From NCBI GenBank assembly GCA_051294905.1, contig CM119373.1, positions 5,768,001-5,832,000 of the forward strand: DNA of 64,000 nt, in the 5' to 3' direction. The notes beneath the pieces are model-generated. The model was not told where the DNA came from and did no database searches. It worked only from the letters and a program-made list of their open reading frames with translations. Positions within the stretch are counted from its first letter, which is position 1. Each line of letters opens with the position of its first letter. The DNA comes from Botryllus schlosseri. Its lineage: Eukaryota. A program made the translations under genes and the position numbers. Positions 1,683 through 61,648 of this stretch are shown one piece after another.

Positions 1683-2202
1683 TAGGGCTTGGCAAAATCG
1701 AGTAACTGAGTGATTTGATTTTGAATCACGCAATATGCTTCGAGTCGAGTCGAGTAATCGAGTATTACTCATTATGACGTCAACACAGAATGTAATACGT
1801 CAAAGCTCAGATATGTACCGTTTATGCCACCACAAAGAATACAATGCCTGTTATCGATCTCATAAAAGCTCCTTGGGTATTTTATCGACCACACCGATTT
1901 CATTCCACTTGGTGACAATTTTGTGGGATAATCATGACTTCGGGAATGTGCTACGTCCAGTAACCTTGGTAGCTTTGTACTATATGTTTCGCTATGCTAC
2001 GATACCGCTAATCAAGGTTTCAAGGCTTCAACGGTGAAAATTAGTATCGAAACTATAATCCTAGTTGATAAATTGACTTTCAGTGGTTAGAAGCGTATAA
2101 TTTGAGTACTCGAAAAAATCGTCTTTTAGTACTCGACTCAATCGAATCATTAAAATTAATACTCGATTTAATCGAGTACTCGAATCATTGTGACCAGCCG
2201 TA
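1683..2202. mobile_element. Non-autonomous hAT-like MITE (TAGGGCT termini, TCGAGTA-rich)
   Basis: Terminal TAGGGCTTGGCA / TGACCAGCCGTA. Inverted homologue of 6759-7265 and 57859-58358. TSD not evident. Confidence 0.75.
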
Positions 2203-4057
2203 GTAGCCACAATCGCGGTGGCACTTATGTTCTTCCTGCACTTAAATAATGTAATGTAGCGTACCAACAGCGAGTGCATAAAGCAGACAACAATTTGATC
2301 CAGAGAAGAAGAACGTGAATTTGCTCGTCTGGTGGAGAGAGGAGATGTTGTTGTTTGTAGTATTTCATGGTTTTTGACTGTTTATCGACTGCTATGGTTA
2401 TTTAAACCTGGCCAATTTTCTTCATATTTATTTTTCAGTGTATTTGGTTTATTGGCTGGTACCCAATTAAGGGAACATTGATCACGATCACATTTATTTT
2501 GCTTCCTTAAAATTGAGTTTCTAACGCATATTCAAAGTCAATAAAATAATTGCAATGAAACCACCTAATTATTCAGTACACTCCACTAGTATACGAATCA
2601 TCGACAAGCATAAAGTCAATCATTCAAATTCAAAGCCGCAAATGCGTTCAATTAAAATAAGCAAAAATTCTAATCACGTTGAAAAGCAATGAATTAGAGT
2701 GTTTACATATAAGGACGGAGTTGTTGGTATGAAATGGATAGTGACACCTGATCTTTGCACCCCAGCGACTATCTTATTGAACAGGATTGTCAATATAAGT
2801 CACCAGGTTCGGAGTCATAAGTCAATATTACTTTTATAGTTTTTAACCAAGTTTAATACAGTGAAGTCCTAGTACAAGTCAGGGAACAAATGGTGGAGTC
2901 ATAGTCATAGTGTTTAATGTTCATCGTCGAGCTTAAGTCGGATTCCACTTGCTTTTTCGAAACTCTTGAATCATATATCTAGCGATCAACACGGCAACGG
3001 CTGCGAGGATAATGAATATAATTGGTTCTGTCACGTGAATGTGAGTCCCAGCGTTTTATAAGAGCTACTGAAAACTGTTCGGCGGAAGTTCTTTAAAGAT
3101 CACAGTATGCATGTTCGAATTACTTCGAAGAATGAGGAGATCTCGTCAACGTTTTGATCCTCGCATGTAGTCACTCACTGCTTCGCAGGATTTTGAATCA
3201 ATCATCTCTCCTAGCCACAATCAGACGCATTCAGTATATTCTCTTAAAATTCATCTACGCGACCATTGAATTGAACATTGAATTTCAAGTAGGCGTAGGC
3301 ATATTACATTAACAAAGACGGCCGACGTGGTCATTCTGAGATGACTTAAAATCCACGGGATAACATACATATTCCATAGATTTTGGTCAAGTCTACATAT
3401 GTAGAGTGAGTAGCTATCAAATTAGAAATTCGATGGCCCGGTTGGTGTTGGGAACAAATCGATGAAATTGGCAGCAAATTCCTTGTCGGGAAATGCGCGC
3501 ACGCCAAGTCGCAGTCTTGTGGAAGATGGGACCTGATGTAGATATTCACGGAAGCGACAACGCCAACACGAAAACATCATTGCAGGTTGCATCGACAATA
3601 TAACGGCGCACAAAGAAACCGTGGTCGCACTGCCGTTTAATTTCTGACTCAGAAGACCCCATGCCTCCAGTAAACCCGATTTACGATTTAATTAAAACGA
3701 CGCAAATCCCAACGACCTGGTTTACAGTAAGATCTATTGCATTCCTCACAAATCGTACGCACGGCTAACGCCACCTTGCGACTAATACAAAGAGGGAGCA
3801 TACAAATATGCCAATTGGTACCGTCGTTAGAGCCACTGTTTTAGCGGATTAAAATGTAGGGCAGACCGAGGAAGATTGTCACACCATAGTGTCCTATATG
3901 GTGTCGACACAAGCAAATCTCACGGCTCAGTGAAATTGTAACACGTCACAATTTCCATTTGGCTACAGGCAATTTGACGGTCATTTTTGCGTTACTGCAA
4001 GAAAGAAAATTGTTCGCTCGTGTCAAGGCTGCTGCTCGAGAACGCATGGGTATAAAT

Positions 4058-5901: not shown

Positions 5902-6557
5902 TCATTTGATCGTCATTGGACATGTTACATTCCACTGAGCTGACACATTTCCTTTGATCACCGAATTTCGCTCATCAAAATTTGCAATAGAATCGCCCTC
6001 GCAACTGCATCCGCCTGTTTCAAATAAATCATCAATTTCCCGTTCGTCGAGAGCTTTGTTCCAGAGTTGAACTTCTTTCATTTCGCCGACGAATCCACTA
6101 ATCGGATATCCACTTTTTTCAGGTTCTTGCAAATTCCCTAAAATTAATGCTCCACCTTCTGCAATAGGTTTGCTGTTCTGCCTCGTATATGTAGATGTAG
6201 AACTTGACGAGCCCTTGATGAAATACTGCAATGCTTTTTCTGACATAACAATGCATGCATAGGTCCATTGTCTGAGGGTGAGTGAAGCGGAAACAGATAC
6301 TGAATGGGGTGATCCTTCAGTGATGGAAACGTTTAGGACTATATTCTTGTACTGATCTAGATTTGTGCGAAGAGTTACACAATCCTTTGATTTTCGCGGA
6401 CAGTAGCTTATAACGGCTCTTATTTCTGATTCGTCCATTTGTTCTGGTCGCAACCACAAGCATAGTGTAAAATTCTGCAACTCCGGTAAGCTACCATTGT
6501 ATTGAACGTGGCCCTTGTGTTGCTTCATTGGGAAAATGAAGTGCGATGAGTTACATA
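5902..6557 (-). CDS. Terminal exon: pentraxin (PTX/LamG-like) domain
   Basis: Open frame with FTLCLWLR, WTYACIV, GGALILG and FVGEMKEVQLWNKAL motifs. Acceptor cttctccttttgcatttcag at 6558 (phase 1), stop TGA. The ORF-track start at 6771 is intronic/MITE. Confidence 0.9.
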
Positions 6558-6758
6558 CTGAAATGCAAAAGGAGAAGTCGCTCGGATATGATTTGAAAAT
6601 CACGAGTAAGGGCACTGTTGAATTACATTTTATAACTACGTGAGTCGGGCGGCTGATCCTATTATGCAATTTTTTTCTGTAGGTTAGCTTGCGCGACCTT
6701 GCGGGACTGTTGGTAAATTCGCACGGTTTACTAAGGCACTCCAAATAGTGGTAATAAC

Positions 6759-7265
6759 TAGGGCTGGGCACAATGATTCGAGTACTCGAATCTCAATCAA
6801 GTATTAATTTCAATGTTTCGAGTCGAGTAGCAAAAGACGATTTTTCTCCAGTACGCTTCTAACCACTGAAAGTTGATTTATCAACGAGATTTGTGGTTTC
6901 AATACTGATTTTCACTCTTGAAGCCTTGAAATCTTGAACAGCAGTATCGTAGCATACGAAATCTATGGTACAAAGCTACGAAGGTTACTGGACGTAACAC
7001 ATTTCCGAAATCATGATTATCCCACAAAATTGTCACCCATTGGAATGAAATCGATATGGTCGAAAAAATACCAAAGTATCTTATATGAGATGGATACCTG
7101 GCATTATATTATTTGTGGTGGCAAAAATGGTACATATTTGAACTCTGACGTAATGCATTCTGTTATGACTTCATAATGAGTGATACTCGATTACTCGATT
7201 CGACTCGAAGCATACTACGTGATTCAGAATCGATTCACTCAGGTACTCGATTTTGCCCAACCCTA
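6759..7265. mobile_element. hAT-like MITE (TAGGGCTGGGCA family), intronic
   Basis: TIRs TAGGGCTGGGCA / TGCCCAACCCTA. TSD GTAATAAC / GTAAAAAC. Confidence 0.9.
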
Positions 7266-7421
7266 GTAAAAACTTCAGGCACGGAGAGCATTTTGAACTG
7301 GTCAAAATACTCAATTCTCAAATTCTTCGGAGGTAGTATATCAAAGCATCGGTAATGTTAATGGCAATGTTCGTAATCTACATTTGTAATTGGGTATGTC
7401 ATTTGCTAGATGGCGCATATC

Positions 7422-34443: not shown

Positions 34444-35605
34444 CGGTGTTGGGATCAAGTCACTACCTTAGAGTCACGAGTTTGTTTGTTGTTTTGGGTA
34501 TTCATGGTGACTACAATGGTCATTTACACCAGGCCGATATTATTTTTATTTTCCGTAACTGCCGACTTATAGCACGGCCCACCTCTAGGCTTTTGTAAGA
34601 CACCGTTGACCCGGATGAGGTGGCGAGGAGGAGCCTAGGTAAACCTGCAACACTTAGGTGTCGGAATTCGGAAGTCGACCTCGGTCGGACTCGAACCCGC
34701 ACCCATTGGTGTTGCAGCCGCGGATTATACCACTGCGCTATCTTGCCACTAAAGTCACGAGTAATTTCGAGTCAGTGCAAATTTTGACTCGAGTCAAGTC
34801 AAGTCAATCGATTTTCCAAGGTGACTCGAGTCAAGTCAAGTCAATCGAGTTTAGGAGGTGACTCGAGTCAAGTCGAGTCAAGGCAAGTCAAGTCACAATT
34901 CAATTCAAGTAGCCATTTTGAAGTATGAAGCATGATTACATCATTGCATTTTGCTAGCTGTTTAAAGTACAGGTTGACTTGTCAGTGCATTTTGAACCGA
35001 TCAACGAATATAGAGTAGCCTACATATATACGAAGGAAACAGTTGCATCGCTCATATATACGTAGAACTGTCAAACTACTTAACTGCATATCCTCAGTTT
35101 ATAGTTACGAAGTAACCTGCCAAAAAAGACAATAGAAAAACGAATTGACAAAACGCAATACATGATTTACCTACTTCATGCGATACCATTCGAGTCAGCG
35201 CCAATAGCTGACGAGTGTATAATATAGATTCGAATTCAATTTGAATAAAAAATAAAAAATAAAAAATATGTTTTGCTTTTAAATCACTTTACTACCATAC
35301 ACACAACGTAAGCTGTAAGCTCCGATCACTTCGTTTGTGGTCAATTTATTTTTGCGAGAACAACTGAGGCATGAGTGGTCGCTCTCGCGGGTTACAACAG
35401 AGTTTCGTGAACAATCCGAAAATATGCAAAATACAGTGATTTCTATCAATAACGATTATTTAATGACTTGAAATCGGCTTGTGAATTTCGCTCAGAGTCA
35501 TGAGTCAATCCAAATTTCTAATGCGCCTAGTAAAGTAAAGTCAAATCATTTTTGCAAAGTGACTCGAGTCAAGTCATGTCATACGAGAAAGGTGACTCGA
35601 GTCGT
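34444..35605. mobile_element. GAGTCAAGTC-repeat MITE interrupted by a SINE
   Basis: Colinear with the uninterrupted copy at 58472-59410. Confidence 0.85.
34482..34749 (-). mobile_element. Full-length tRNA-derived SINE
   Basis: A-box TAGCGCAGTGG (34730-34740), B-box GGTTCGAGTCC (34687-34697), (CAAA)n tail, 13-bp TSD TA(G/A)AGTCACGAGT. The empty site is visible at ~58500. Confidence 0.88.
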
Positions 35606-36457
35606 TTGAAATAAAAATTTCCGAAGTATTTCCCTAATTTTTCCCGATGCAGGGATTGAAACCTCGCCATGAAATCCATCTTATTCTGTACATAACCACT
35701 ATTTGAACAGCTTCTTGGAGATACAGAACTTCAATATACAATTGAATTAAACCCGAATATTTTCGGCTGATATTCGTCATAAATCGGATAATGATATACC
35801 AGTTCTTAAAGCTCGGTTATCAGATTTGGGGCATTCTTGTTGCGGATGCCCTATCGACAAGGCTGTTTTTTTATGAACAAGGAGTGTTTCGTTGCTATCA
35901 AAACATCACGCTCCAACCCTGAAATTCATATCACCAGTTATATTGGTATGTTAATGTTCAGTTGTTCATGGTCGAAAATGTTTGCTCGTAAATATATACG
36001 TAAACCCGAACAGAACAGGTCTTTTCATGACAGTCTTTCTCAGGTTGGAAAACTGGGATCCGTTCTTTGGCGCATAACATTTCTCAATACTTTTAGATTA
36101 GGATTTCACTCTGACGGTAGAAATTCTCTGCGGACCGATCAAAATGCCGTCGCGGGCCGATATTTGTTTGCAATCCACGAATCCCTGCCATTCGTATCAT
36201 AAGCCCAAAACTCGTTGTAATGTTGAAAAGTATTTTTCGTTATACTAACCAAGCTTTCCTGTTTCACCATTTGAAAATTTCATTATGGATTACATCGGTC
36301 TTGCAAACATATTTTTCAGGTTTTTTCCAGACTTTTATTACTTCTGGATCACTTAATTGGAATATGAACTAAGATATGCTCAATCACGTCAAGTTTTATG
36401 AGAAAAATCGACTCCTTTGATGTGGCAATTAGACATAATGGTTTGTTATGTCTACCG

Positions 36458-44363: not shown

Positions 44364-45954
44364 ATGTACACAATCCCCAGCGTTATAACGATAGGGACAA
44401 ATTAGTCACATGTACGCGAAACTAATGGATATAACGACGTAGACAAATTAGTTTCATGTATGCGGTGTCCGAGGTTACCAATAGAAATAGACACTTTGAG
44501 CGTTTTGTTTTAGGTTTCGTGATGTCATCATACAGGACTCAGGCCACTATCTTGCAGTAGGTTACGGGATCTATTCTCAGTCTCATGGTACTTTCCTCAG
44601 ATATTCTATTATGTGTATTTAGGGCTAACGCGACTTGACAATATTAACGCGTTGATGCTGTTCCATACCAATTTGTCACTTAATTTCGTAAAGTAGGTAC
44701 ATAACTTCTTCTATTAATCTCTTACACTTCTACTAAACTTCAACACTTAATCTTGTGAAGTATAATGAAAAGTGGAAGTAATCGAAAGATTCACGAAGTT
44801 CCGATACACTATATTTGAGTTTTTAAAAGTTATTAATCCCTCACTCCGACTTCAATTTCTTTGTCATGAAAACATTTACTTTCAAAGGATTTTCAATAGG
44901 ATTTTTATGTACCAACAATCACTGTTATTCATAAAGACAGATCAGATGAGGTGCGGCCAACCCGTGGTCAACAGGCCAAATGCGACCCGCGAGAAGGTTT
45001 TGTGTGGCCTGCTAGGTAACACTTGAAATTATTTGTGACAACCAAAATTTGATTAGCCTGACCGCGAAATTAAATGATGACTAAAACACCAGTTCTGGCG
45101 CATTAGCGTAACCAAGGACCAGCCACATTTATCGCAGATCTTCGTATGCGCATAAAGTAGAAGTAGTATGAGTAATGTGCACGACGTGCGCATGCAAGGA
45201 TTATAATAAACAAACAAAGATTATCAATATAATAAGTAATTAAAGAATTAGCTCATTCTCAATTTTGCAGCAATACTTTCATGACCCTGTGTGCGGCAAT
45301 CAAAAAGGGGGAATAATTAACGATAGAGAGAAAACGAACAAAGAATCTTGATTGACCTTTGTACTCAGACATGAGACTTGAGTCATTCTACTTGTACTTT
45401 TCCACTCGCCTCCTGATTCTACCTGCCTTTATTCTGGAGTTTGCGAATATGTTGAACGTAATCAGCTTCCAAAATATCGATTGACCTCTTGTACTCTGGC
45501 CAGAAGTGAAACTTATTGATTAGTAATTCTACTTGTACTTTTCCACTCATGATTTAATCTGCCTCGCTTGACCTCTGGACAAGGACACGAAACTACAGCT
45601 GACTTCGGTCGTACGCGACTGGGCTTGGTAATAGTTGCCTGCCGACAAATCGCCCTGACCTATCGTTTTGTGGTTCAATTTCGTGACGGGGCTTTGGGAA
45701 TAATTGCCTGTCAAACCACCCTGGTTGACTTGTCGTTTCGCGATTGACTCGATTTCGTGCACGGTGGAGCATAGGAATAATTGCCGGTCGTGACGTCAAT
45801 AAAGTTTTCTCCTGATCGGTGAGATCCTGGTGCGTGTTTTAGGTGTCTATACGTTCGGCTGTGCATAGTGACGCTTGTAGTCTGTTCCATACTGTCGTAC
45901 TTGCTCTTGCTTTGTTGTCGACTTAAATAGTAAGGAGAAATGATCTGTTCTGGT

Positions 45955-46530
45955 TATAAATGTGTGTGTCATTTTGATTCATATCGAGAACCAGAAAGAA
46001 TGTCGTGTATTAAAAATAGGTATTAGGCGCCCCCGACATAGATTAACTTAAATACAGTAACATTAAGAATATAATAAGTAATTAAAGAAATAGCTGATTC
46101 TCAATTTTGCTCGCACCAACGTGTTAACTTGCGGTAGTACGTATCTAGTGATTGGTGTAAGCAACAACTGCTGTTCCACACTTTACCGCGTTCTAGCGTC
46201 TTCATATAGGACAGACAATCCCAACCAAACAATGTATCTGTTATTATTATAAATATGTGTGTCATTTCGAGTCATACCGAGAATCAGAACGAATGTCGTA
46301 GTAGAAATTTGTATTAGGCGACCCGACATAGATTAGCTTAAATAACGTAACATTATGAATATAATAAGTAATTAAACAAATAGATGATTCTCAATTTTGC
46401 TCACATCAACGTGTTAACCCCCCGGTAAAACGCACCTAGTATTCGGTGCAAGCAACAAATGTGGCTGTTCCATACCTATACCGCGTTCTAGCGTCTTCAT
46501 AAGGACAGACAGTCCCATCCGAACAATGTA
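45955..46530. repeat. Subterminal ~290-bp tandem repeat sharing a motif with the TIR
   Basis: Two units starting TTATAAAT(G/A)TGTGTGTCATTT. The motif AATATAATAAGTAATTAAA...ATTCTCAATTTTGC occurs at ~45227 (in TIR), ~46068 and ~46358. Confidence 0.85.
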
Positions 46531-47564
46531 TTTATGATGGGGGTGTTTTTACTGCTTCACGTCTGGTCAAGCGTAATCATACCAGTGCCTATAAATGATA
46601 TGTAATTTACCGAGGGATATTAATTTTGTATGCTGTACAGTGTACATGATGGACAACTAGAATCGATCTGTTGTCGTACTGATGCTTTGCCTGTCTGTAC
46701 GATAGATATGGATCACGAATTCACCGCGCACTTGTCATTCGAGGGCGACTCATTTCGCTGTAGACAATCAGTTGTGTTCGCGTGTGCCGTAACATATCCT
46801 CAACACTTGTTATGTCAACACCTCCAAACATATTTACAATGTCATGCTAAGGGTATATTGCTTCGGCGGGGTGTTACCGTCAGAGAATCGCTGTGTCATC
46901 CCTTTCGAGCCTCGTATTTCCCGTTTGAACTCGGTAACTGCGAGTACGATGTCAGATTCAATTGTACAGTGACGAATCGGGGTAGCTCGCTTCATCGGGG
47001 ATCAGTGGACTGACCTTATTTGGCTGAAACGCGCTCGGTTTCGGTGGTGCAATAATGGGAATGAATTGTGACAGATCATACGTGATGCGATCTATAGCCT
47101 GCTTTCGGTGAGGTGTAATGAGTGGGAGATTTCGAAATCAGAATCCACTGCGACTATAAGGTTGCAAAAGCAAAGTCCAAAAAATCCGACTGGCACGTAA
47201 AGTCCTGGTATTTCCATGTATTAGGCTGGTAAAATGTAGCATAAATCCGACTCTCAAAGACACTTGGCCGCATCCAGTCCGGGTTTAACCAAAACTGATG
47301 AAATCTGCGCCGGGTCCGGAAACGAATCGTGACCACCCCCGTCCAGACAAAACAGTTCTGCTGTAAGGGGAGTGTCGCTGTACATTAATTTGCGTACATC
47401 GAGACTTTGTATCGACTCATTGGCGGACTTCTGTTTGTCTGTACAGGTGTTATTAGTGTAATTAGATTTGCCACCACAAGGAGCATATTGGCAAAATCAC
47501 ACAACGATAACAACTTTACCCGTCAACAACTCTCATGACTTGTCGTTGGTACGCTTCCAATTTC

Positions 47565-50500
47565 GATGTGGTGCGATATACGCGAATCAGCTGTGATCAA
47601 TCGAGCGTGACACAATCGATGTCAGTCATCAACCCGCCTGTTGACAAAACTCGCGTCTTCGGGTTGACAGCAATACAATGCGATCCATTTGATGTCCCGT
47701 CGACCCTCCTATTTAATGGGGTTACCATACGGCCTCATTCAAGGGAGCATATGTCCTCCTTTTCCCAGATATGTCACCCCTTCGCCCGAATGTACTCTCT
47801 TTCTGTCAATTTGTCCTCCTTGTTAGCTTAACATATCCAAAAAAACACCACGAGTAACGCAAAATGTGGGCCTAGATTACAAAAGTCGGGTATGTAGCCA
47901 AATCGGAAAAATGACGCTATGATGGTATTGTGCAGGCTATTACATGTATACGGGGGCCTGTGTAAACATGTGAATAGTAAAAGCGACCCAAACTACCGTT
48001 ACATGAAAAAGATCGAGCGCACTCGACCATGTCGGGGTATACCCACCATAGTACAGCCAAATGATCCCATGTCGTACCGAGAATAGCCGGGGTGGTGATA
48101 CATCATTCTCACAAGATGTACTTTGGAATGCGTGTGAAATCGTCATCGTCCGCTACTCGACTAAAGCAGAATATAGCTTTGAAGTACTCAAGTAGAAGTA
48201 GCTTTAAAAGAAATGTCGGTATCGTGAAATGGCTTTCTATCCTAATTATAAAGAGTAGGTCCCCATAAAACTGTCGAGTCAAAATACAGTTTCGAAGCGA
48301 CCCGGTAATTTGTAAATCTTATTTATGGGTTGCACGGTGTGTTAATTCATTAGAGAGAAGCAGACACGGCGGTGCCTGTATAACGAGGCTGTTCTCAAAT
48401 CCACATTGTCTTCGCTATTATCGGGGAGATATGGCTTTGCAGTGACATGGAGGTCGTTAAAATATATTGGTTAAATACGATTTATTCCTCATATATGGGA
48501 ATCAATGCGTGAATAATGTATCGATTCAGCAATTCGCTCCGCCAAGAACTTAATTTTCTTATATCCGGCCCGCCGACCGAAGGAGTTGCCCGCTCCCTTG
48601 TATAACACATATGTAAATGATACAATAGCGACAGCTAACGGTTGTCAATCATCCATAAAAAATACAGCTGACCAGTAATTTATACAGCTCTCAAGGATAA
48701 ACTAGGAATATATGTGTGAGTAACCTCGATTGACCCATGAGGCAAGTTTAGACACGAAAAGCTTTTTGAGGTGTGATATAATCCCAATAATTGTACAGTA
48801 TTTTTCCACGGACACATAGCGCAATCGAAAACGGAGTTCGTCTGTCTCATTCCCTGCGGCTGACTCGAGCAAAAGTATAGGGTATAAGTGACCATGAGTC
48901 CATGCCAAGCCTGTCCACCGCTTTTGAGTAGGTATTTGGAAAGACCGGGTCGTGATAACCTCCATACAAGGCCTAATAGTTCTGCGTACAGCGAAACTTT
49001 GTAGCGACCTATTTGCGGGCTGTGCATGTGTTGTTAGTGCAATCGTGTTTAGCCCCACAAGAACGTAATCATTTGAGGATGAATAAAATCTTACCCCACA
49101 ACGATACCAAATTTACCCCCTCAACAACTCCAACGGTATGTATTTATGTAGATTTCATATTTTTATGAAAAAGCTAATCGACCACAAGATACTGTTACGT
49201 ACCATCTCTTTCGGTAGGGTTTGTTAGTATTGTAACATGATGATCGGGGGCTATGGTCTTTTACACTAGGTCTAAAAGGGTAGGGGTATTCGTTAGTGAT
49301 ACACCCGTCTGACGGTGGGGTATTCGACAAAATCACTCTGTTTTTACTACGGAAACCATGATCACACTTACGAGCTCTCATCACTTGTCGTACGAATGCT
49401 TGTAATATCGGTGTGATGTACTCAAAACAGCTGTGATCACTCGAGTGTGACGCGATCGAAGTCAGTCCTATCAGCTGTCTGAGGAAACTCGTATACTCAG
49501 TAAGAGAGAGAGAGAGAGTCTTTATTTTCATCCAACCAAAATACATAACACACGGCAGTGATGGTGGTACAGAAAATCTCGCACAGTATTCGGTATTAGA
49601 TAGGAATGATCGATAAGACCGTGAAGGTCATCTAGTCTGATCACACCAGCATCAAACAGGTACACTTGACTCTAAACAGTCTGGCTGCAAAGGTTGACGG
49701 CAATGCGATATATTTGATGTCCCCATCGATCCTCATACTAATGGGGTTGGCGTACGTCCTCCTTCTCCAGGAAAATATCCTCGCATAAATGTACTCCTTT
49801 TTGTGAATTTATCTTCCGTTTTAGCTTAAAATACCCAAAAAGACCGTGAATAACGCGAAATAGGGACCTACGAGAAGCGGGTAGGGTCTATCTTGCTGTT
49901 TTCGCATAATTCTGTTATTCAAATGTAGGATTTTGGTGTAGGTCTGATTTATAACTTTGTAAAAGTGAGGTAAACTCATTACAAAATTACTTTCTGCTTT
50001 TAAAGTCAAACGTGCAAAGAGTAAGTAATTTCACCTGAAACGGTTGAGGAGTAAGTTACAACGACTTGGATATATAGCACTAGTACCGAGTACTCGAATC
50101 AGTAGCGTCTTTTTACACCATTACTCAACCCAAGTCCACAACATACCTAAAAACGTGGTATCGTTTTGTGTATTTCAGTGAAGCAAATTCAATTTAAATC
50201 TCAAACCACTTTATCCTGTGCCCGACCTCATTAAAAATCGATCAAAACCTGATCACCACCTGCGTAATCAATCCGCTGTGTGTAAAATGGTATACCATGT
50301 TCGTGTCGATCGTATATTAATTTTGCGTGCGATTTGCGTCGATCTGCTGTCGAACAGATATACTTTTGCCTACTCCTGAAGTATACAGTATTACCATGTT
50401 GTCTATATTACGGCTCTGTGGTTAGACAATACAGATTAGAGACGCCCCGGACTGATCAATATAGTCGGATACTCCCAATCTGCTCAGTCGTGGTTCTTGA

Positions 50501-51450
50501 CCCTCCAAGACCTCTGTTAGCATCAGTCTATCTCACTGTTTGTATTGCCAATTTCAAACTCCGTAATAGTGATCACTCGCTCATGTGTAGAATATAGAAA
50601 TTGACGCCTGGACTATTTGCACGAGCTCATGGTTTATGGTAAACTTACTAAAGCGGAAAGTCACTGCCAAGTTGAACATTGACTGATCGTTTTCTTGTTA
50701 TCGTCGATATTCGCTCGTACGTTCTTTCATGCCTTAGAATTTTTGTTATCATCGAGTGTGGTCATAAATAGACAGGGGGGACAAATTCGATGCGTTCAAC
50801 ACAATACGCGTTTGCCACATCTCAGTCCGGACCGTAACCGATCGTTTACCGCACCTACGATAAATGTCGCTTTTTACTCATAGGTAAGCCGATGATCTGT
50901 GAAAACACAGGCGCTAACGTGCGATTTCGTTATTTATTCCTTCAACGTCACATGACCGCCTATGAGGGCTTTTTGGGTGCCCACCAATACAGTGTTGAAA
51001 CGTGATACATAGGGCCCCCACTGCGTGCTATACGCCTAAATAAATATGTTTACTCGAGTTTACACCTGGTGTGGAGCAGTGAAGTGGATGCAGAAAGTAA
51101 ATAAGACGAAACAAACCAGTTGACTACATCGATTAATATACGGGAGTTGATAAATTTCGTCAAGTGACTTTTGAATGGATGTTATTTGTCTGTTGTTTGA
51201 TGGATAAGATTGTATTCAATCATAAACTACTAATATACTTCTTGTGGTGCTAAACCTGATTATACAAATGAATCAAACAAACAGTATTCCGCCAATTGGG
51301 AGTAGTTGCCCGTCGTCGTGATTGATCTCCTAGTTCGCGGTGGTAACGAAGAATGTATAACAGAAAGTGTAAATAGCGACAACTAACTGTTGTCAGTCGT
51401 CCACAACAATGCAGCTAACCAGTAATCTATAGAGATTTCAAGAATCGATA
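47565..51450. repeat. Old local duplication
   Basis: 47565-47870 matches 49425-49865 (the latter interrupted by a ~190-bp retro-like insert with a (CT)n tail at ~49500-49690). 48580-48700 matches 51300-51445. Confidence 0.7.
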
Positions 51451-51458
51451 ATCAAATG

Positions 51459-54400
51459 TGTGGTGACCTTTCGTGGAAAGCGTAGGTCGACGAAGACGAA
51501 ACTGCTTGACAGCTTTCTAGGTTTTTATTAACTGAAATTCGGCTACAATAAACTTTAAAAAACTAGGACATACGCACTGGACAACACAGATATAAGCAAC
51601 TGAGGTACGAAAGGAATGAACAGAGCGAAGTAAACTAATCACAGTAATCAGCACTTATACAATCACAACAATCACCACATTCAACCCCACCAAGAAAAAT
51701 AGGGACTAGCTTTTACGAGGTCCCTTCCCCGTAACGTTCGGGAGCGCGCCTTAAGTGCGTGGATCGGCGCAGTGGAGGTTCTGCGACCTCTAAGCTGCTA
51801 CTGGGCTGCACTACTTCGTCGCGATGCGGAGAAAATGTTTTACAAGCAATGCCATCTTTTTCGCTGCTGGACGACGTGGTAAGTTCGTCGGAAGATGGCT
51901 CCGTTGTGTCGCAGACAGAGGAAAACTCTTTTTTCTTTCCCTCAAGCGCCTCAGAAGACTTTGTAGAAACAGGGTAGGGTGCGAGATCTTTAACGGAAAC
52001 CGTTGATTCTATGCCGTATCTGTAACGTATCAAAGCGTATTTAGGATTGGCATCCAATAGTTCTACACTTCTACTTCATTAACGAGGGGGTCGCATTTGT
52101 TCCGCACAAAATTTCGTAGGAGTACGGTGCCGCCATGAAGAAGCCAGTCGGGAATGGAGTCGCCCACCATGGATCTCCTTTCAAACTTGAAGAACCTGTC
52201 ATGGGGGGAACAATTAGTTGCCGTGCACAAGAGCGACCGGATGGAATGCAGAGCATCCGGCAAAACCGATTCCCAATGGTTCTCCGACAATCTCCGACTT
52301 TCCAAAAGCAACTTGACGGATTTCCGCGAAGTCTGATTAAGCCTCTCGCATTGCGAATTGCCTGTGGGGTGATAAGGAGTCGACTTGCTGGTGGCAATAC
52401 GCTTGCATGTCAGGAAATCGGTGATTTCCTTAGAAAGAAATGAGGCACCCCTGTCACTGTGTACATATTCCGGTACACCGACAACCGAAAACAAGGATGA
52501 GAGACAATTGACGACCGTTGACGACGTCATGTCGCGACAAGGATAAGCAAATGGGAAGCGACTGTATTCGTCAATAATAACAAGTACGAACTTTCTGGGT
52601 CCATCAACGGGACCTTTGAAATCGATGCTAAAACGTTCCCGTGGTAGAGTAGCTTTTATCAACTTGTTCGTTTCATTAGACATGAAGAACCGAGGTTTCA
52701 ATTTAGCACATATTTGACAATTAGCACAAGTTCTTTTAACGTCCTCCATGGAAAGAGGTAGATTCTTGGATCGTACAAAGTGATCAAGTTGTCGAATCCC
52801 AGGGTGACTCAGCGCTTCATGGATCTCTTGAAGGCTCATGTTTGGCTGGCCTGGGGACGAACAGCAAACACGAGACAGAGTATCAGGCCCGATATTCTCG
52901 GATCCAGGGCGGTGAATTATTTGATACTTTAGCGGACTTAACTCCAGTTTCCACAGAGTGAGCTTTGCATTTTTAATCTTACTCGGATGATCTTTTCTAT
53001 ATATGAAGGATAATGCCTTTTGGTCCGTTATCAATTTAAATTCGTTTCGGTTCAAGAGATAATCCCATTTTCGAAGAGACTCGACAATGGGCAAAGCTTC
53101 CTTTTTTACAGCGGAGTATTTCATTTCACATTCAGATAGCGCTCGAGACATGAACGCAACAGGCCTGCCCTTTGGCTTAAAATAGAGGCGATCGCAACTT
53201 CGGAAGCACCGCATTCAACTTGAAACGGTTCGTCATCATAGATGCAGCTCAAACAGGCGCGAAGTAGATTCTGTTTTAACAGTTCAAACGCGTTTCTCTG
53301 TTTTTCAAGCAATGGGAACACGACATTTTCACAGAGGGGCTTCACTTTGTCGGAAAAGGACAGAATCCATTTTGAATAGTACGAAAACATGCCCAAACAG
53401 CGCTTCAGACTACGAGTATCGCTTGGAGCCGGCATTTACATTAAGGGTCGCAAATGATACGGATCGGGTCGAATATCATTGTGGGATATCAGATGGCCGG
53501 GCAGTGAGAGCTTCGAAACCCCAAACGCAAATTTATTTTTATTTAGAGTCAGACCTGTTGAATCAGCGGCGGACATGAACGAAGAGAGCCTCTCATTGTG
53601 CTCTTTCTGATTCCTTCCGTATATAGTTTTACATTATCCAAGTAAGCTATTGTGCCTTTCAAGTGGTTGTCTGCTATGAATTTATCAATGAACCGCTGAA
53701 ATGCAGCGACCCCATTGGTGATGCCGAAGGGTAGGCGACGAAATTGATACAGACAACCATCAGCTTCAAAAGCTGTGAAAGGTCGGTCGGCCGCAGAGAG
53801 AGACACCTGGTGATATGCAGACTTGAGATGGATCGTGCTATAAACATCTTTTGCAACTTAATTGACAATATCATCAATTTTGGATAGCGGATAGGCATCC
53901 AAAGGGGTGTATCGATTTATCGTTCCCGAGTAATCAATCACTAACCTTTTCTTATGTCGAGGTCCCTTTGGTTACCGAAATTGGGGTCGCCAGGGAGATA
54001 CCGACTTCTCTACAACGCGTTCATCCAGGAGCTTCGACACCTCGCTTTGTACGAAAGATCGATCCACTAAGCTGTACTTTCTCGACTTCACGGCTACAGG
54101 CTTTACAGCTGGATCGACAAACTTGAATATTTCAGGCGGATCACTCACTCCACGGCTACAGGCTTTACATCTCGATCGACAAACTTGAATATTTCGGACG
54201 GATCACTCACTTTAGCGGCAGCTACGGCGCAATGGTTGCGTCCTAATAGGAGATCTCCCTTCGGTCCACCGAATTCAAATATAACTCTCGTTAGCTGTTT
54301 GAGGAATTCCAAGCCGATAATTACGTCGGCGCACAATTCATCAACGATGCAAAATTGATTTGCACCGTAATATTCATCTTCAATACAAAGTGTCGCGTAT

Positions 54401-55721
54401 GCGTGACCAATAACTCGAGCAGAAGATGACTTTAATGCAAGGGTAATAGTGTAATCCCGAGGAGTAAGAACGAGATTGAGAATTTTGGCGAACGATGAGC
54501 TAATGCAGCATTCGTATGCTCCCGAATCTACAAGTACTTTGACCAACCTCTCAGCAACAAAAACTTGCAGCGTCGAACGCCTCAAGGAACCGGGTACACC
54601 GGCAGGCGAAGCCAAATTGAATTTGCAAACTTTGTCAAAGTGACCCCGTCGGCCACATCTCGAGCATTCGCTGTTTCGGGCTGGACAAAACTTGCGAAGC
54701 ATCGTATGGAAACAGCCACACAATACGAACTTCTTTTTTTCAGGAGACTTCTGTAATACGGCCAATTCAGATCCACAAGGCCGCACCAGCGATTGGTCAG
54801 GCGTATGTGAAGTCTTCTGCATTTCCTGATTTCCCGGGACCATGTTAGCGGTAGGAGGCGATATTTCATAGAACGAGGAAAACGCTTGCGCCCGTTCAAG
54901 AGAGCCTGCTATATGCATGGCTTTTTCGAGTGTTCACTCATCATGTTCGAGAAGACGCAATCTAATGCCCGAGGACTGCAAGCCAGTAATTAGGGCATCT
55001 CGCACGGCCTCCATTTTATGCACTTCTGCATTAACAGCTTCAAAATTGCAATCACGCGATAGAGCGATCAACTTTTGTGAGAAATCAGCGACGGTCTCAC
55101 CAGAGTCTTGCTTAGCAGTTGCGAGTAAATGTCGAGCATATATGACGTTCTTTTTCTTTCGATATAACTTGGTTAAGTGTGCCATGGTAGATTCGAACGT
55201 GCCATGATCTTCGATCAAAGCGTACACGCTTGGCGATATATAACCAATCAAAATAGCCAACTTATCGAGAACTACTTCGGGGCGGCCACTGCTAGATTCT
55301 TGTCCAGTGTCCGTGCTGCTGGTCGATGGTAAAGAAGACTCTGCAGCCGATATGAAGCTCGACAACATTTTGTCCCAGTGGTTGAATACTTTCGAAGAGT
55401 CTCGAGAGCTCGGTAATAAATCTAGGATCGGCACGCGGATATACTTCTCTTGAGAGAAAGCCATTCCAGAGTCGATTGTGTCAAAAGCAGATAATAAAAT
55501 TGTGGTGACCTTTCGAGGAAAGCGTAGGTAGATGAAGACGAAACTGCTTGACAGCTTTCTAGGTTTTTATTAACTGAAATTCGGCTACAATCAACTTCAC
55601 AAAACTAGAACATACGCACTCGACAACACAGATATAAGCAACTGATGTACGAAAGAAATAGACAGAGCGAAGTAAACTAATTACAGTAATCAGCACTTAT
55701 ACAATCACAACAATCACCACA
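51459..55721 (-). mobile_element. Full-length degenerate Ty3/Gypsy LTR retrotransposon
   Basis: 221-bp LTRs 51459-51679 and 55501-55721 (TGTGGTGA...TCACCACA; 13 differences counted), 5-bp TSD AAATG, purine-rich PPT-like GGTGGGGTTGAA, PR-RT-RH-IN order. Confidence 0.96.
51713..55464 (-). pseudogene. Gypsy gag-pol, multiply frameshifted
   Basis: gag CSRCGRRGHFDKVC, protease LVDSGA, RT LPFG..NGVAAFQR and AYLDNV, RNase H ITDQKAL, integrase HEALSHPG..CQIC, IDFKGP, HSDRG, NSQCER. 62-bp internal tandem duplication at ~54089-54210. Confidence 0.95.
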
Positions 55722-57169
55722 AAATGTTCATTGCACGGTCATGAGTATGAATATGTGCACTGTGCAGTGCGTAGCAAAGTTATTGAAATACAGTCAACAG
55801 TTAAAAATTTTGTTCCGCTCACTTTAGTCCAGATGAATCGTAAATTAAATGTTCATTGCACGGTCATGAGTAGGATGAGTATGTGCAGACAACTCAATAA
55901 AATATATATTATTGCGTAATAAATGAATTGCAGATGTACTACTTCATCAACATTTTTTCTATTATTACTTTTTCAAATCAATACACGACACGATTGCGAT
56001 GTAATGAAAAGATAGGAGGGTACCGAAACGACTTGGAGTTGTGTTTTAATCAGACACCCCCCTTGGCCCTAGCCTACTCTACACTGAAGTACATGAAACG
56101 GATCGCATAAAACGCACATCGGTTTTACTTTAGGTTTAGCTGTAATGTACAGTATTTCGATACCTAACGATTCAACAAATACTGTACTGTGTTTCTGTGC
56201 AACACACACATATGCAGTGCAAAGAATTAAATCAGCTCATGGATATTGCTCTGTCTATTGCCCAAATTTTGTATTTTCGAATTCTCCCATCAACAATCAT
56301 TACCTTCTATTCCCTCTATTCCCCCAACTATATCCGTTGGTATTGTTATTGCATTCTGATTGCTCTCTTTGTTATGTTGTGATGTCGCGATAAGGGGCTC
56401 GCGAGATTTTTCACTGTCATAAATGGGAGGGTGTCCACAAAAGTCTGAGAACCATTACTCTAAATCAGTGGTCCTTGACCTTTTTTTCTCCAGCGCCCCC
56501 TTTCAAAAATTTTCTGGGTCTGGCGCCCCCCTATTTTAAGGACTGCAGTAAAAACAATGGGTAAGTGGTCGAAATCCGGTTTGGGGTTTGGACTTCACTA
56601 TTAGACCACTCGACTAATTAACGGTATAATTGTATGTGCTATTTTCGGGATCAAATTCAGGTTGTTATACCAACCATCGGTAAGGCCTACGCCCTACGGG
56701 CTCATAGAGGAGATAGATCAACGCATCCCGAATTCTCCTCTGCGATTGGCAATATGGGAAGTTAAATGCATTGGGTTTTGTTTTATTGCTTCGTGTGACT
56801 ACTAAATCAACTGAAAATGTGGTGGAGATTTGTGCTTCATAAATTTAGTACTGCACCAAGTTCTTAACTTCAACATGAATGGGGGTAACAACACCAAATA
56901 GTATCATCCTTTATGATACGATTAACAAATAATCTGATGATTTAATTTTGTAGCTCCCAAATACAAGTATATTTGGTAGAGACAAGGTTAAGAACCAATG
57001 CTCTAAATTGAAACATTTGATTGAGACACCATATTATTGGCTAAACTATTTCTTCTCAGACTTTCCATAATGTGGGCTTGGACATCATCAGAAAAGGTAG
57101 TCCAATATGAATTTCAGCTCTCATAATATCATCTGTAGCCTGTTGAAGTCACTATGGAAGTGTCTGCAG

Positions 57170-58365
57170 CAGTGGTTCCCAAACTTTTTCGGCTTGTGGC
57201 ACACTACAAAACTTATAAAACTCTTGCGGCACACTTGGACCGAGAAAAGATGCTTAAAAATATCGACGTTATTTTATTACATGAACAGAACATATACAAT
57301 AGAAAGGAGGTTGAATTGTTCACAAACTTACCCGCATTTTGTAATGCCCATCTTTAGATATTGAAAGGATTTTTGGATATGGCGAACAAAACCACTTGCG
57401 TTGTAATGGCCAAACAAACATAATCAACAACAACAACCCGCATTTTTTCATCAATTCCAAGCAGTGACTCTCGTTTACAGCTTTTAATTTAACTCAAGAA
57501 AGATAAGTCCTGTCCACCTAGCCATGAAGATGCAAATTTTTGACACAATATTGATTGCATTTACATTGATTATGGAATAGGATTTGCTAGCAGACAGCTA
57601 AAAATCACACAATTTCTGTTGAAGAAGTATCTTCAAATTTTCGTAAATCAAATAGCTGCTCTTCTGCGGAAATATTGCTTGATTTATTAGGATGCCAAAA
57701 CTCATTTCATTGTCACTTATGCTTATTTATCAGCTTTTGAAGAAGTTAAAGTGTCTGTAAGTCGCGTATACTAGGCTTCAGGCCTTTTTCAATATATTTA
57801 TACAGTTCTTTTCCAAAACTCCGAAAATGTTCGCGGCATACAGTTTAGGAATCACTGGTAGGGCTGGGCACAATGATTCGAGTACTCGAATCTGAATCGA
57901 GTATTAATTTTAATGATTCGAGTCGAATAGTAAAATATGACTTTTTCGAGTACTGAAATTTACCCTCCTTGCAACTGAAAGGTAATTTACTAACGGGAAT
58001 TATAGCTTTAATACTATTTTACACTGAGGAAGCCTGAAACCTTGATTGGCCGTGTCGCAACCTACGAGACATAAAAGCTGCGAACGTTACTGGAAATAAC
58101 ACATTTCCGAAGTCGTGTTCGTCTCAGAACATTGTCAAGAAGTACAATGAAATCGGTATGGTCGAAAAAATATCAAAGTATCTGAAATGTGCTGGATAAC
58201 AGGCATTTTATGCTGTTTGTGGTGGCATAAAAACTAAATATTTGAATTTTGACACAGTACATTCTGTTGTGACATCATAATAAATTCGAATACTCGACTC
58301 GAAGCGTAATACGTGATTCAGAACGAATTTCTCAGGTACTCGATTTTGCCCAGCCCTAATCACTG
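57170..58365. mobile_element. hAT MITE with a second MITE (57859-58358) inserted in its right TIR
   Basis: Outer TSD GTCTGCAG / GTCTACAG. Inner TIR TAGGGCTGGGCA with perfect TSD ATCACTGG, which duplicates the outer terminus. Confidence 0.88.
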
Positions 58366-58471
58366 GTCTACAGAATCACTTGAGTAGTCCCGAGTCATAT
58401 ATGCAGCCAGCAGTGCGCGTGAGATCGGAAGTTCGGGAGGAATTTTCGGGGCGACGCCAGTCACGCTGAGC

Positions 58472-59410
58472 CAGTGTTGGAATCAAGTCACTACCTTCGA
58501 GTCACGAGTCATTTCGAGTCAATGCACATTTTGACTCGAGTCAAGTCAAGTCGATCGATTTTCGAAGGTGACTCGAGTCAAGTCAAGTCACTCGATTTTT
58601 GGAGGTGACTCGAGTCAAGTCGAGTCAAGTCAAGTCAAGTCACGAGTCAAGTCACAATTCGAGTCAAGTTGCCGTTTGAAAGTATGGGGCATTCTTACGT
58701 CATTGCATTTTGCTAGCTGTCTGAAATATGGACTGATTGGTCATTGATTGTGAACCGATGAACGAAAATAGAGTTAAATATACGCAAGAAGGCGCTGTAT
58801 CGCTCATATATTCGTAGAAATGCTAAGCTACGTAAGTGATTACATAGCATCAGCTCATAGTTACCAGCTAAAATAGAGTTTAGAGAAACGAATTGATGAG
58901 ATGCAATACATTACCCATTTACAAATTGATATGATACAATTCGAGCCTACGCTAATTGTTCATGACTATATAAACTATATTCGAATTCAATATCACAAAA
59001 ACAAGAGGTTTGGTTGAGGTATGAACACAGAACTGAAATAGAAATTTTACTGTTAAATTACATTACTATACTAGTTTACGACAGCGTAGGCTGTAAGCGT
59101 CGATCACTTCGTTTGCGGTCAATATATTTGTGAGAGAACAATGGAGGCTTAGTAAAACGCACGATAATTGAATTATTGGTCGCTATCACAGTCTACACCA
59201 GCGTTTCGCGAACAATTCGACCATAAGCAAGATACGGCGATTTTTATCGACAGCGATTGCTTGATGACTTGAAATTGACTCGAAAAATTTTGCTCCGAGT
59301 CGCGAGTCAATCCACATTTCGGATACGCCGAGTCAAGTCAATTCATTTTAGCAGAGTGACTCGAGTCAACTCAAGTCATACGAAAAAGGTGACTCGAGTC
59401 TTTGTGAACG
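58472..59410. mobile_element. GAGTCAAGTC-repeat MITE
   Basis: Starts CAGTGTTGGAATCAAGTC. Colinear with 34444-35605. Confidence 0.82.
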
Positions 59411-59698
59411 CTAGTGACCTGTGTTTTCAGATTGTGTATATTGCTCGATAAACCTTGTACAGCATACGTTCTACTCTTTTCGAGCGTTCGGGAGTCGTTG
59501 TCGTCATAAAGATCATACTCGCTACTATCCAGGGAGCAAAAAGAGGTAAACTACGACAGTATGACGCAGACCAGAATCGTCACCTTGCATCGTTTCGTCT
59601 GGCCGAACGCGTTGACAATCCGTCTAAAACACGAACCGGGATCTCACATACGGATCCGAAGGAACAAATATTATACTGACGTCATGTTTGACGGGCAA

Positions 59699-59893
59699 GC
59701 GACACTTGAGCATGCGACACTTGAGCATGCGACACTTGAGCATGCGACACTTGAGCATGCGACACTACAGCATGCGACACTAGAGCATGAGACACTTGAG
59801 CATGCGACACTTGAGCATGCGACACTTGGGCATACGACACTTGAGCATGCGACACTTGAGCATGCGACACTTGAGCATGCGACACTTGAGCAT
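59699..59893. repeat. Minisatellite, 13 x 15 bp (GCGACACTTGAGCAT)
   Basis: Direct count of units. No spacers. Confidence 0.97.
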
Positions 59894-59975
59894 TTGTCAT
59901 TTCTTAGTGTGTAGTTAACTAGCGTCAAAATCATGGATTTATACCAGTCCGAAAATGATATATCTCACCTCCTCC

Positions 59976-60425
59976 AACCCTAATATCCCCCCTCCCAACT
60001 TTGATACCCATCACCTCAACCCTATTCTTGGGATACCGTAACCCTAACGCAAAGCCTAATCCTAACCCTAACTCTAACCCTAATCTTGGGATACCTTAAC
60101 ACCTTAACCCTAACCCTAACCAACCCTAATATCCCCCTCCCAACCCTAATACTCAACACTCATCACCCCCAACCCTAATGTTGGGATACCTTAACCCTAA
60201 CCCTAACCCAGACCAACCCTAATATCCCCCCTCCCAACCCTAATACTCATCACCCTCAACCCTAATCTTGGGATACCTTGACTCTAACCCTAACCAACCC
60301 TAATATCCATCCCCCCAACCCTAATCTTGGGAAACCTTAATTCCAACATGGACCCTAATAACCCTAACCTAACCTAATCCTAACCCTAAGCTAACCCTAA
60401 TCCTAACCCTAACCTAACCCTAACC
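59976..60425. repeat. Degenerate telomere-like (CCCTAA) satellite with higher-order structure
   Basis: AACCCT runs interspersed with recurring TTGGGATACC and ATATCCCCCTCCC blocks. Confidence 0.9.
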
Positions 60426-61648
60426 GAAGTCAGCTGTAGTTTCGTGTCCTTGTCCAGAGGTCAAGCGAGGCAGATTAAATCATGAGTGGAAAAGTACAAG
60501 TAGAATTACTAATCAATAAGTTTCACTTCTGGCCAGAGTACAAGAGGTCAATCGATATTTGGAAGCTGATTACGTTCAACATATTCGCAAACTCCAGAAT
60601 AAAGGCAGGTAGAATCAGGAGGCGAGTGGAAAAGTACAAGTAGAATGACTCAAGTCTCATGTCTGAGTACAAAGGTCAATCAAGATTCTTTGTTCGTTTT
60701 CTCTCTATCGTTAATTATTCCCCCTTTTTGATTGCCGCACACAGGGTCATGAAAGTATTGCTGCAAAATTTAGAATGAGCTAATTCTTTAATTACTTATT
60801 ATATTGATAATCTTTGTTTGTTTATTATAATCCTTGCATGCGCACGTCGTGCACATTACTCATACTACTAGTAGAATATTTCGTAGCAGATTTACTTGAC
60901 TTGAAATTTTTTTCAGCAATTCGCATGATTTATTGTCACTAGATTTCTTGTATTTAGTATTGGATCCCCCTCCTGAAAATTATATGTACGCGTTATTTAC
61001 GGAATTATGTCAAACTATATTCGCAATTCGGAGATAACGTGTCGTCCAACATGCCACTTCGCTTGTGCGCTCGCAGCGAGATCGTCGACGACGAAACATT
61101 TGCACAAAATGATAGAGGCTATGTCTAAACGCCGAATAATCCTGTCCTTGCCAAATGAGCCCAGTGGTATACAGATGCGACCCCCAATATATGTAAATAC
61201 CATATTTATTGATAGAACTCATTAATTACCTTTAAGAAATTACGCCCTTAGCGCAACCAGGGCGTGACTGCACACTATGCACAGTTGCATGATATAATTG
61301 TTATCAATTTTAAAGCATAGGAATATAAGTCTTGTTTGCAATGTTACCTAATTCGGTTCGCTCCTATCTGACGACTAAAAAAAAGTTTTCAACATTCCAG
61401 TTGCCCGCGCAATGGTTCGTAAATCTAATGTGTCCCTTTGGTCGAAAAGGTAGGCCAACCCTGGAGTAAATGCATCGGCTGCTTTTGTAAAATTGTAAAA
61501 TCGATGTAAATATAACCAAACGATGCTTCCCATTTGACAAAATTAAAAGTATTTGTAGTGTAGCTTAGCTGCTGGAATCGAACAAATGATGAAGAAAGAC
61601 TGCAAGTCGTAGTCCTTGAATACTCGATTAAGTACATATAGATTAGAC

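Follow-up and report, generated by a model that had tools for sequence, protein, structure and literature searches.

How does an element with the ends of a Maverick/Polinton come to span 15.7 kb without a viral gene of its own? This question is raised by a stretch of 64,000 nucleotides of the Botryllus schlosseri genome (C3:5768001-5832000, hereafter the window, whose coordinates are used unless a contig is named), in which a complete, gene-less and non-autonomous Maverick/Polinton lies at positions 45162-60869. An original prediction, made from the letters of the window, held that Polinton ends had captured a block of host-like DNA and moved it as one unit. We searched the genome assembly (495.5 Mb, 219 contigs) for relatives of the element, scoring about 40 candidates per search, such that counts from these searches are lower bounds throughout. 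The element is probably a gene-less member of a resident Maverick/Polinton population that depends on autonomous copies, and is best read as something other than bare ends that have freshly taken up host DNA. The population behind it is a large resident family of gene-less copies rather than a one-off host capture, and most of its copies (8 of the 12 fetched) are giant palindromes.

Boundaries and coding content

The element opens with a left terminal inverted repeat (TIR) of 448 bp (45162-45609, plus strand, tip AGTAGT) and closes with a right TIR of 447 bp (60423-60869, minus strand, ending in ACTACT). The two match at 446 of 448 positions, the exceptions being one substitution (45260, C/A) and a 1-base indel (45471). 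Directly outside the tips stands the hexamer AGTAGA, on the left at 45156-45161 and on the right at 60870-60875; a match of six letters out of six has a chance of 1 in 4096. Beyond it, both flanks are halves of one high-copy repeat. The left half (44862-45155) has 40 scored matches among 1895 candidates at 75-83% identity, the scored matches of the right half (60876-61169) were drawn from 2784 candidates, and the flank matches are adjacent at three loci common to both top-40 lists. At C3:28475658-28476287 they overlap by exactly six bases, the hexamer being present once in this uninterrupted paralog. Since the flank halves are adjacent elsewhere and overlap by six bases in a paralog, the insertion is genuine: 45162-60869 is a real and complete insertion with a 6-bp target duplication. 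The prediction of TIRs of about 448 bp with two differences and AGTAGT/ACTACT tips, a perfect 6-bp duplication and flanks that rejoin into one old repeat is borne out in each of its parts. Read joints that link 45146/45147 to 60870/60872 have sides of only 21-28 letters, and in one public run (X13) nine foreign letters are reported between the sides of the joint from 45147 to 60870. We read these joints as paralogous, uninterrupted copies of the flank repeat and not as an empty allele.

No pPolB, integrase or capsid gene of the element's own was found within 45162-60869, the sole rve domain being that of a Gypsy retrotransposon lodged in it. Of the 56 open reading frames (ORFs) within the element, 31 were scanned with Pfam, and these 31, all of at least 65 amino acids (aa) and outside about 51.7-55.2 kb, gave nothing above cut-off. 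The interior likewise holds no host gene fragment, as no Pfam domain was found outside the Gypsy, and Rfam and tRNA scans of 44500-61500 returned nothing. A tblastn search with every ORF of at least 80 aa from a resident autonomous Maverick (L053/L054, described below) detected neither intact nor decayed Polinton genes in the window copy and no viral remnant in 12 gene-less relatives, the only matches across these 13 copies being spurious ORFs over TIR or subterminal DNA. The missing pPolB, integrase, packaging ATPase, protease and capsid ORFs had already been noted in the original prediction, and the search for decayed Polinton genes that it called for comes back empty when resident autonomous proteins are used as queries. 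At this sensitivity, decay of viral genes in situ is excluded.

A gene-less family and the window copy within it

To place the element among its relatives, we turned to the ends. From 2030 candidates, 40 matches to the 448-bp TIR of the window were scored, the majority of which form plus/minus pairs, and the end motif AGTAGT-N6-RATGTGCR occurs at 161 places, compared to 11 for a reversed control. Joining every plus end to the minus end that follows it on its contig sorted these 161 ends into 57 pairs and 47 unpaired ends. Five of the 57 pairs hold a listed polymerase match and 52 do not. Fourteen pairs were read, namely the window copy, 12 gene-less copies and one autonomous copy, and thus 13 of the 52 gene-less pairs were inspected directly. 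When compared by eye, the two ends of a pair usually share the variable hexamer (exceptions at C1:38.58 Mb and C7:27.83 Mb), and of 14 elements examined, 10 have a perfect 6-bp duplication, three have one that matches at five of six positions and one has none.

The gene-less pairs have a median length of 14.7 kb and range from 4.8 to 39.6 kb, with 19 at 14-16 kb and seven at 16-18 kb; the polymerase-bearing pairs measure 16.4, 16.4, 16.4, 16.6 and 21.1 kb. At least eight end hexamers, read by eye, are represented in the 14-16 kb group. A size limit imposed by capsid packaging would be compatible with this census. Shared descent confounds it, and both the inherited architecture and the existence of copies of 4.8-11 kb speak against a strict limit.

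The left 6.3 kb of the element (45162-51445) is family sequence, colinear with all 12 of the other gene-less copies fetched (L031-L052) at 82-96% identity. Inward of the TIR lies a non-coding arm without any Pfam domain (45610-51187, plus strand), which is 96-97% identical to its nearest relatives and forms both inverted arms in the palindromic ones. It contains an internal subrepeat (45939-46237 versus 46231-46531, 84%), the old interior duplication of the original prediction. A search with the inner 966 bp of the arm gave 39 further matches among 40 scored. In four elements (on C8, C12, C10 and C13) one side matches query positions 1-966 and the opposite side 1-708, an asymmetry that puts 51188-51445 (plus strand) on the loop side, as a stretch that each element of the related palindromic lineage has once. 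Beyond 51445, family homology is lost.

Eight of the 12 fetched gene-less relatives are near-perfect palindromes made from this arm sequence, whose arms measure 2.9-7.3 kb and agree at 98.5-100%. Five of them, at C12:25.64 Mb (arm 7346 bp, 99.9%), C7:27.83 Mb (6382 bp, 99.8-100%), C2:36.57 Mb (6379 bp, 99.7%), C4:25.65 Mb (4478 bp, 98.5-98.8%) and C5:22.63 Mb (2918 bp, 99.7%), are joined by copies at C12:22.31, C10:3.11 and C3:35.90 Mb, which have arms 99.7-99.9% alike and one-sided insertions of about 2 kb. The copy at C2:13.0 Mb also holds arm sequence in both orientations, together with a 3.5-kb one-sided insertion; its arm-to-arm identity is tabulated over only 2.3 kb (99.9%), the remainder having been hidden by the offset filter. 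The other three are not clean palindromes: that at C8:10.38 Mb encloses a unique centre between TIRs of 1.1 kb, that at C10:1.66 Mb has diverged outer TIRs, and that at C1:38.58 Mb (L048, C1:38578842-38588384), with TIRs 94.5% alike, differing end hexamers and no duplication, has probably been rearranged or is chimeric between two elements. Because the central loops of the palindromes fall into at least two homology groups, the palindromic architecture is inherited, and because arms are far more alike within an element than homologous arms are between elements, the arms appear to evolve in concert. The idea that the loop is a small nested element with AGTAGT ends of its own was rejected, as no such ends were found and the loop sequence is not resumed after 58402 in the window copy.

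Some relatives contain ORFs of other kinds. In several gene-less palindromic copies each arm contains one uninterrupted IAP-like ORF (about 394 aa, three BIR domains; Pfam BIR, 1.4e-46), found at L035:4821-6002 (minus), L036:820-2001 (plus), L042:6098-7243 (plus) and L050:1553-2560 (minus) and 6385-7392 (plus), and split in L046. Neither the window copy nor the autonomous copy has this ORF, which may be true gene cargo of a Maverick derivative. In L049 (C8:10377590-10385730), an 8.1-kb family member whose 1.1-kb TIRs enclose a unique 5.9-kb centre, consecutive ORFs of 293, 205, 168 and 172 aa (L049:2187-5173, plus) have no Pfam match, and one of them includes a hydrophobic stretch. Zinc fingers are encoded twice: a 229-aa ORF with multiple C2H2 fingers lies in the loop of the C7:27.83 Mb copy (L044:7062-7748, plus), and a zinc-finger-bearing ORF pair in the 3.5-kb one-sided insertion at C2:13.0 Mb (L031:4725-5836, minus).

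The right 9 kb of the window element is of a different nature. The junction at 51445/51446 is abrupt, relatives diverging after 51445, and beyond it begins a low-copy unit of 2.7 kb (51446-58402) that a Gypsy element splits into 51446-51458 and 55727-58402. Among the matches listed, this unit has one paralog, C4:18871984-18874677 (94%, non-coding), which lies in none of the 57 end pairs. Homology to the paralog spans the Gypsy insertion site and hence the Gypsy landed 13 bp inside the unit; that the paralog starts exactly at the edge of the Gypsy was considered and rejected, since homology begins 13-16 bp before it. The Gypsy itself (51459-55721, minus strand) is a decayed long terminal repeat (LTR) retrotransposon with TG..CA ends. 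Its LTRs (51459-51679 and 55501-55721) are identical at 208 of 221 positions (94.1%; 5.9% apart), a 5-bp duplication, AAATG, flanks it at 51454-51458 and 55722-55726, and Pfam domains RVT_1, RT_RNaseH, rve and gag-asp_proteas are spread across several broken frames.

Further repeats fill the rest. Nested in the 2.7-kb unit is a repeat resembling a miniature inverted-repeat transposable element (MITE; 57859-58358), with copies at window 1683-2202 and 6759-7265 (77%) and another inserted in one arm region of the C7 copy. Next comes a high-copy repeat of about 930 bp (58471-59401), also present at window 34753-35610 and covered (query about 2750-3680) by 38 of the 44 matches listed, at 83-94% identity. 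In a self-comparison, 57859-58358, 58500-59408, 48376-48598 and 56460-56568 recur in the window outside the element. Satellites occupy 58532-58669, 59695-59893 (a 15-bp unit in 13 copies) and 59955-60422 (to 60425 by Tandem Repeats Finder, TRF), the last being a telomere-motif satellite with a higher-order period of 87-93 bp. The MITEs with copies outside, the Gypsy and the satellites that had been listed from the letters of the window were all recovered. The purest (TAACCC)n-like run (TRF 60359-60425) borders the right TIR at its edge (60423, TIR position 448) and reaches slightly into it; read on the minus strand, the TIR passes directly into TTAGGG-like repeats, the polarity expected had telomerase extended a broken 3' end. 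As a family feature the telomere-motif satellite was rejected: it is absent from all other fetched loci, the only match being L002, which is the same locus.

Within this copy-specific part, a piece of about 300 bp (59402-59698, plus strand) is subterminal Maverick sequence typical of the pPolB-distal end of autonomous copies. It is 90% identical to L053 659-943, which becomes 450-734 when the autonomous copy is numbered from its left end. For this piece 40 matches are listed (77 candidates; best 94%), of which 18 lie 9-15 kb from a pPolB match, all 18 same-stranded and at the polymerase-distal end, and in two elements with known ends the piece lies 442-744 bp from the tip. These 18 polymerase-distal contexts indicate that the right end of the window element is of the polymerase-distal type. 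The left arm is weakly similar to the polymerase-proximal end (45842-45961 versus L054 5991-6108, 74%).

Autonomous copies and the origin of the element

One autonomous Maverick copy (L053/L054, C1:36302815-36319232, 16.4 kb) was read from end to end. Its tip, AGTAGT-N6-AATGTGCGGAA, is that of the window element, the terminal 45 bases are identical at its two ends, and the duplication is gctgtc; its TIR is 534 bp long, with the two ends 85% alike, and is 77% identical over 277 bp to that of the window. Its polymerase ORF of 1241 aa (also measured open for 1381 aa) has 19 homologs, six of them with precomputed PF03175, and on rescanning five of 10 aligned homologs match this model (best 3.3e-16). 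A whole-genome scan with PF03175 had found nothing, a false negative, the polymerase being found via homologs and protein search. A single-sequence PDB search with the ORF gave no meaningful match, and a PDB profile search returned zinc fingers and a VSR-type nuclease insert, with no polymerase chain among 60 of 122 matches. Indeed, the homolog profile matches VSR-type mismatch endonucleases at profile positions 943-1004 (E 3e-5). One named homolog is an abalone protein; together with the polymerase type, this points to a putative mollusc-like Maverick lineage. The same copy encodes an rve match and a 504-aa ORF whose nearest Atlas clusters carry the double-jelly-roll (DJR)-like PF21738 (score 0.97; in 14-30% of members), which is a lead only to a capsid-like protein; for a packaging ATPase, weak P-loop matches alone were seen.

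At least 38 pPolB matches were found in the genome, in three classes of 93-100%, 61-64% and 37-38% identity to the L054 ORF, and these classes of divergence suggest that several Maverick lineages share the genome. In the closest class, eight of 16 near-full-length matches have no internal stop. That the termini of the window element are those of a Polinton/Maverick is upheld by this resident copy, where the same tips and a 6-bp duplication accompany pPolB and an rve match. The stronger expectation of a Polinton with these very ends stood for tips, duplication and pPolB, and fell short for the TIR, which agrees at only 77% over 277 bp.

In the reading that we favour, the window element would have kept the cis-acting parts, namely the AGTAGT tips, a TIR of natural length (448 bp) and the subterminal DNA of both natural end types, its left end resembling the polymerase-proximal and its right end the polymerase-distal end of autonomous copies. 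As it encodes nothing of its own, the integrase behind the 6-bp duplication would have to be supplied in trans by autonomous copies, as the anatomy suggests, and replication would presumably be carried out by their protein-primed polymerase. The first 6.3 kb may then be regarded as inherited family stuffer, the same sequence that makes up both arms of the palindromic relatives, and the remaining 9 kb (the 2.7-kb unit, Gypsy, MITE, 930-bp repeat and satellites) as specific to this copy. With both natural end types retained, the element looks like a derivative whose interior has been replaced. It is best taken as asymmetric kin of the palindromic lineages, either descended from their unduplicated ancestor or a recombinant.

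Whether the composite has moved with its present content is close to an even call that leans slightly towards movement. The TIRs differ at 2 of 448 positions versus 13 of 221 for the Gypsy LTRs, and about 26 TIR differences would be expected had both diverged together. TIRs so much more alike than the LTRs fit movement, or copying of the ends, after the Gypsy had aged. The arm, 96-97% identical to its nearest relatives, has also diverged less than the LTRs (5.9%), which points weakly in the same direction; a rough Poisson estimate gives about 8 differences expected versus 13 observed, and the contrast is not significant.

Several results count against the favoured reading or against movement as part of it. 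The TIRs of the autonomous copy are 85% alike despite a polymerase 100% identical to that of a second copy, hence transposition need not equalise the ends; the age of the insertion cannot be read from near-identical TIRs, whose 99.6% identity could stem from gene conversion in situ. The original prediction called for a search for further copies of the 15.7-kb unit; among the scored matches the composite stands alone. Nor did an autonomous copy turn up whose TIRs resemble those of the window closely, and the best TIR matches (up to 97%) are all at places without a listed pPolB match. In the autonomous copy, the rve match of the 365-aa ORF (L053:5157-6251, minus; E 2.6e-7) scores 31.3 bits versus a Pfam cut-off of 32.6 bits, and no protease or confident packaging ATPase was identified at Pfam E values up to 1. 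When the junctions were checked in four public runs, which consist of short contigs, no listed piece bridged any of them. Finally, mobilisation in trans is something we infer from anatomy alone.

The capture originally proposed, in which Polinton ends took up a host-like block once and then moved in trans as a 15.7-kb unit, draws on the abrupt junction at 51445/51446, on the low copy number of 51446-58402, whose only listed paralog lies outside all 57 end pairs, and on an old Gypsy (LTRs 94.1%) enclosed by ends that differ at 2 of 448 positions. It has to contend with the finding that the largest block of the presumed cargo (45610-51445) is family sequence, present in 12 fetched copies and at 39 other places among 40 scored, that 59402-59698 is Polinton subterminal DNA, that no host gene fragment is present and that the composite is single-copy among scored matches. 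The claim of a captured host-like segment thus fails for 45610-51445 and 59402-59698 and could hold for 51446-58402 alone, and we consider such a capture quite unlikely. The element might otherwise be a palindromic member remodelled in situ, its right arm mostly lost, other DNA inserted or recombined, and its TIR identity a leftover of the arms. The multi-kb arms, 98.5-100% alike, of eight of the 12 fetched gene-less relatives make this attractive, as do the arm and first 258 bp of loop that the window shares with one palindromic lineage and the telomere-motif run at TIR position 448 with the polarity of a healed break. The polymerase-distal piece near the right end, in proper orientation, is easier to explain as an original end, however, the 2.7-kb unit is no recognisable insertion, the loop sequence is not taken up again beyond it, and the Gypsy, with LTRs 5.9% apart, would need to be younger than ends 0.4% apart. 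Remodelling in situ therefore strikes us as unlikely.

Two further explanations carry less weight still. An interior mis-joined during assembly is conceivable given the satellites and high-copy repeats inside and public runs of short contigs unable to bridge them, yet the ends are partners with a matching 6-bp duplication, the flanks are adjacent in paralogs, the 5-bp duplication of the Gypsy is intact, the C4 paralog spans the Gypsy insertion site and the total length is typical for the family; we hold an artefact to be very improbable. An autonomous Polinton decayed in place would provide both natural end types and a near-autonomous length. Neither tblastn with resident autonomous proteins nor Pfam finds a gene remnant, however, and the interior is common to gene-less relatives at other loci, which leaves decay in place scarcely credible.

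A more far-reaching interpretation concerns the family as a whole. The gene-less copies might be a chromosomal record of defective, helper-dependent Mavericks, in which palindromes would be copy-back products of template switching during protein-primed replication of one end, and a single-stranded fold-back intermediate would keep the arms 98.5-100% alike. The 14-16 kb mode, just under the 16.4-kb helper, would then reflect a capsid packaging window, and the window copy would be the asymmetric, stuffer-filled counterpart that moved with an old Gypsy aboard. We offer this as a speculation that is, on balance, doubtful. If true, it would provide direct sequence evidence for the self-synthesising replication model and for virion-mediated spread of Mavericks.

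Significance and comparison with known systems

Maverick/Polinton replication and particle formation are still inferred largely from genes (PMC10748475, PMC8097293). Here, gene-less derivatives far outnumber polymerase-bearing pairs in the end census (52 versus 5), and they take two forms, both informative: palindromes built from a single end, and an asymmetric copy that has kept each natural end. These forms allow testable predictions as to which cis sequences suffice for mobilisation, whether a fold-back intermediate is formed and whether length has a minimum or a favoured value. The presence of retrotransposons and other repeats in such elements bears on Mavericks as carriers of mobile DNA. 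For annotation there are two warnings: inverted repeats of several kb that surround non-coding DNA can derive from Mavericks, and the Pfam polymerase model alone missed the resident polymerase. On its own, the window element would be an ordinary non-autonomous member, and its interest rests in the family pattern behind it. A full-text literature search, outside which Repbase and the founding 2006 paper lie, returned no description of palindromic or fully gene-less Polinton families.

Autonomous Polintons/Mavericks measure 13-25 kb, with TIRs of 100-1500 bp, duplications of 5-8 bp and genes for pPolB, integrase and capsid (PMC10748475, PMC3014272). The window element resembles them in its TIR of several hundred bp, its 6-bp duplication, its AG...CT tips and its 15.7-kb length, but lacks any viral gene or remnant. 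One of these sources also reports a VSR insertion in the polymerases of marine mollusc Polintons, as in the homolog profile obtained here (PMC10748475). Closer in kind are the polintons of Lepidoptera that lack polB, carry LINE (long interspersed nuclear element) or Gypsy cargo and stay mobile, alongside which polintons with gene-bearing TIRs of about 2 kb exist (10.1101/2025.02.07.637071). Both cases share a retrotransposon inside a polymerase-less Polinton and long inverted ends in relatives. In that text, however, the Lepidoptera elements keep other viral genes, whereas the window copy has lost all, and the present family goes beyond what is described there in its ratio of gene-less to polymerase-bearing pairs (52 to 5) and in arms of up to 7.3 kb that take up most of an element. 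Cargo-carrying Mavericks are also described in nematodes (10.1101/2022.07.12.499685). The window copy is like them a carrier of foreign DNA and unlike them in having no host gene. The nematode elements reportedly carry host genes beside viral genes.

Gutless adenoviral vectors need the ends alone in cis, receive replication and packaging functions in trans and are filled with stuffer DNA, and among defective adenovirus genomes are some with one end duplicated in inverted orientation, as well as short genomes that form inverted dimers. For the present family these serve as an analogy, the Maverick copies here being known from their sequence and not from a virion, packaging signal or replication intermediate. 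The foldback-like elements FB and Galileo, the latter placed in the P superfamily, have long, internally repetitive TIRs (PMC3573991). Very long inverted arms with internal subrepeats are what the present family has in common with them. Target duplications of FB and Galileo are 7-9 bp long. The family described here differs from both in its 6-bp duplication, its Polinton tips and its superfamily.

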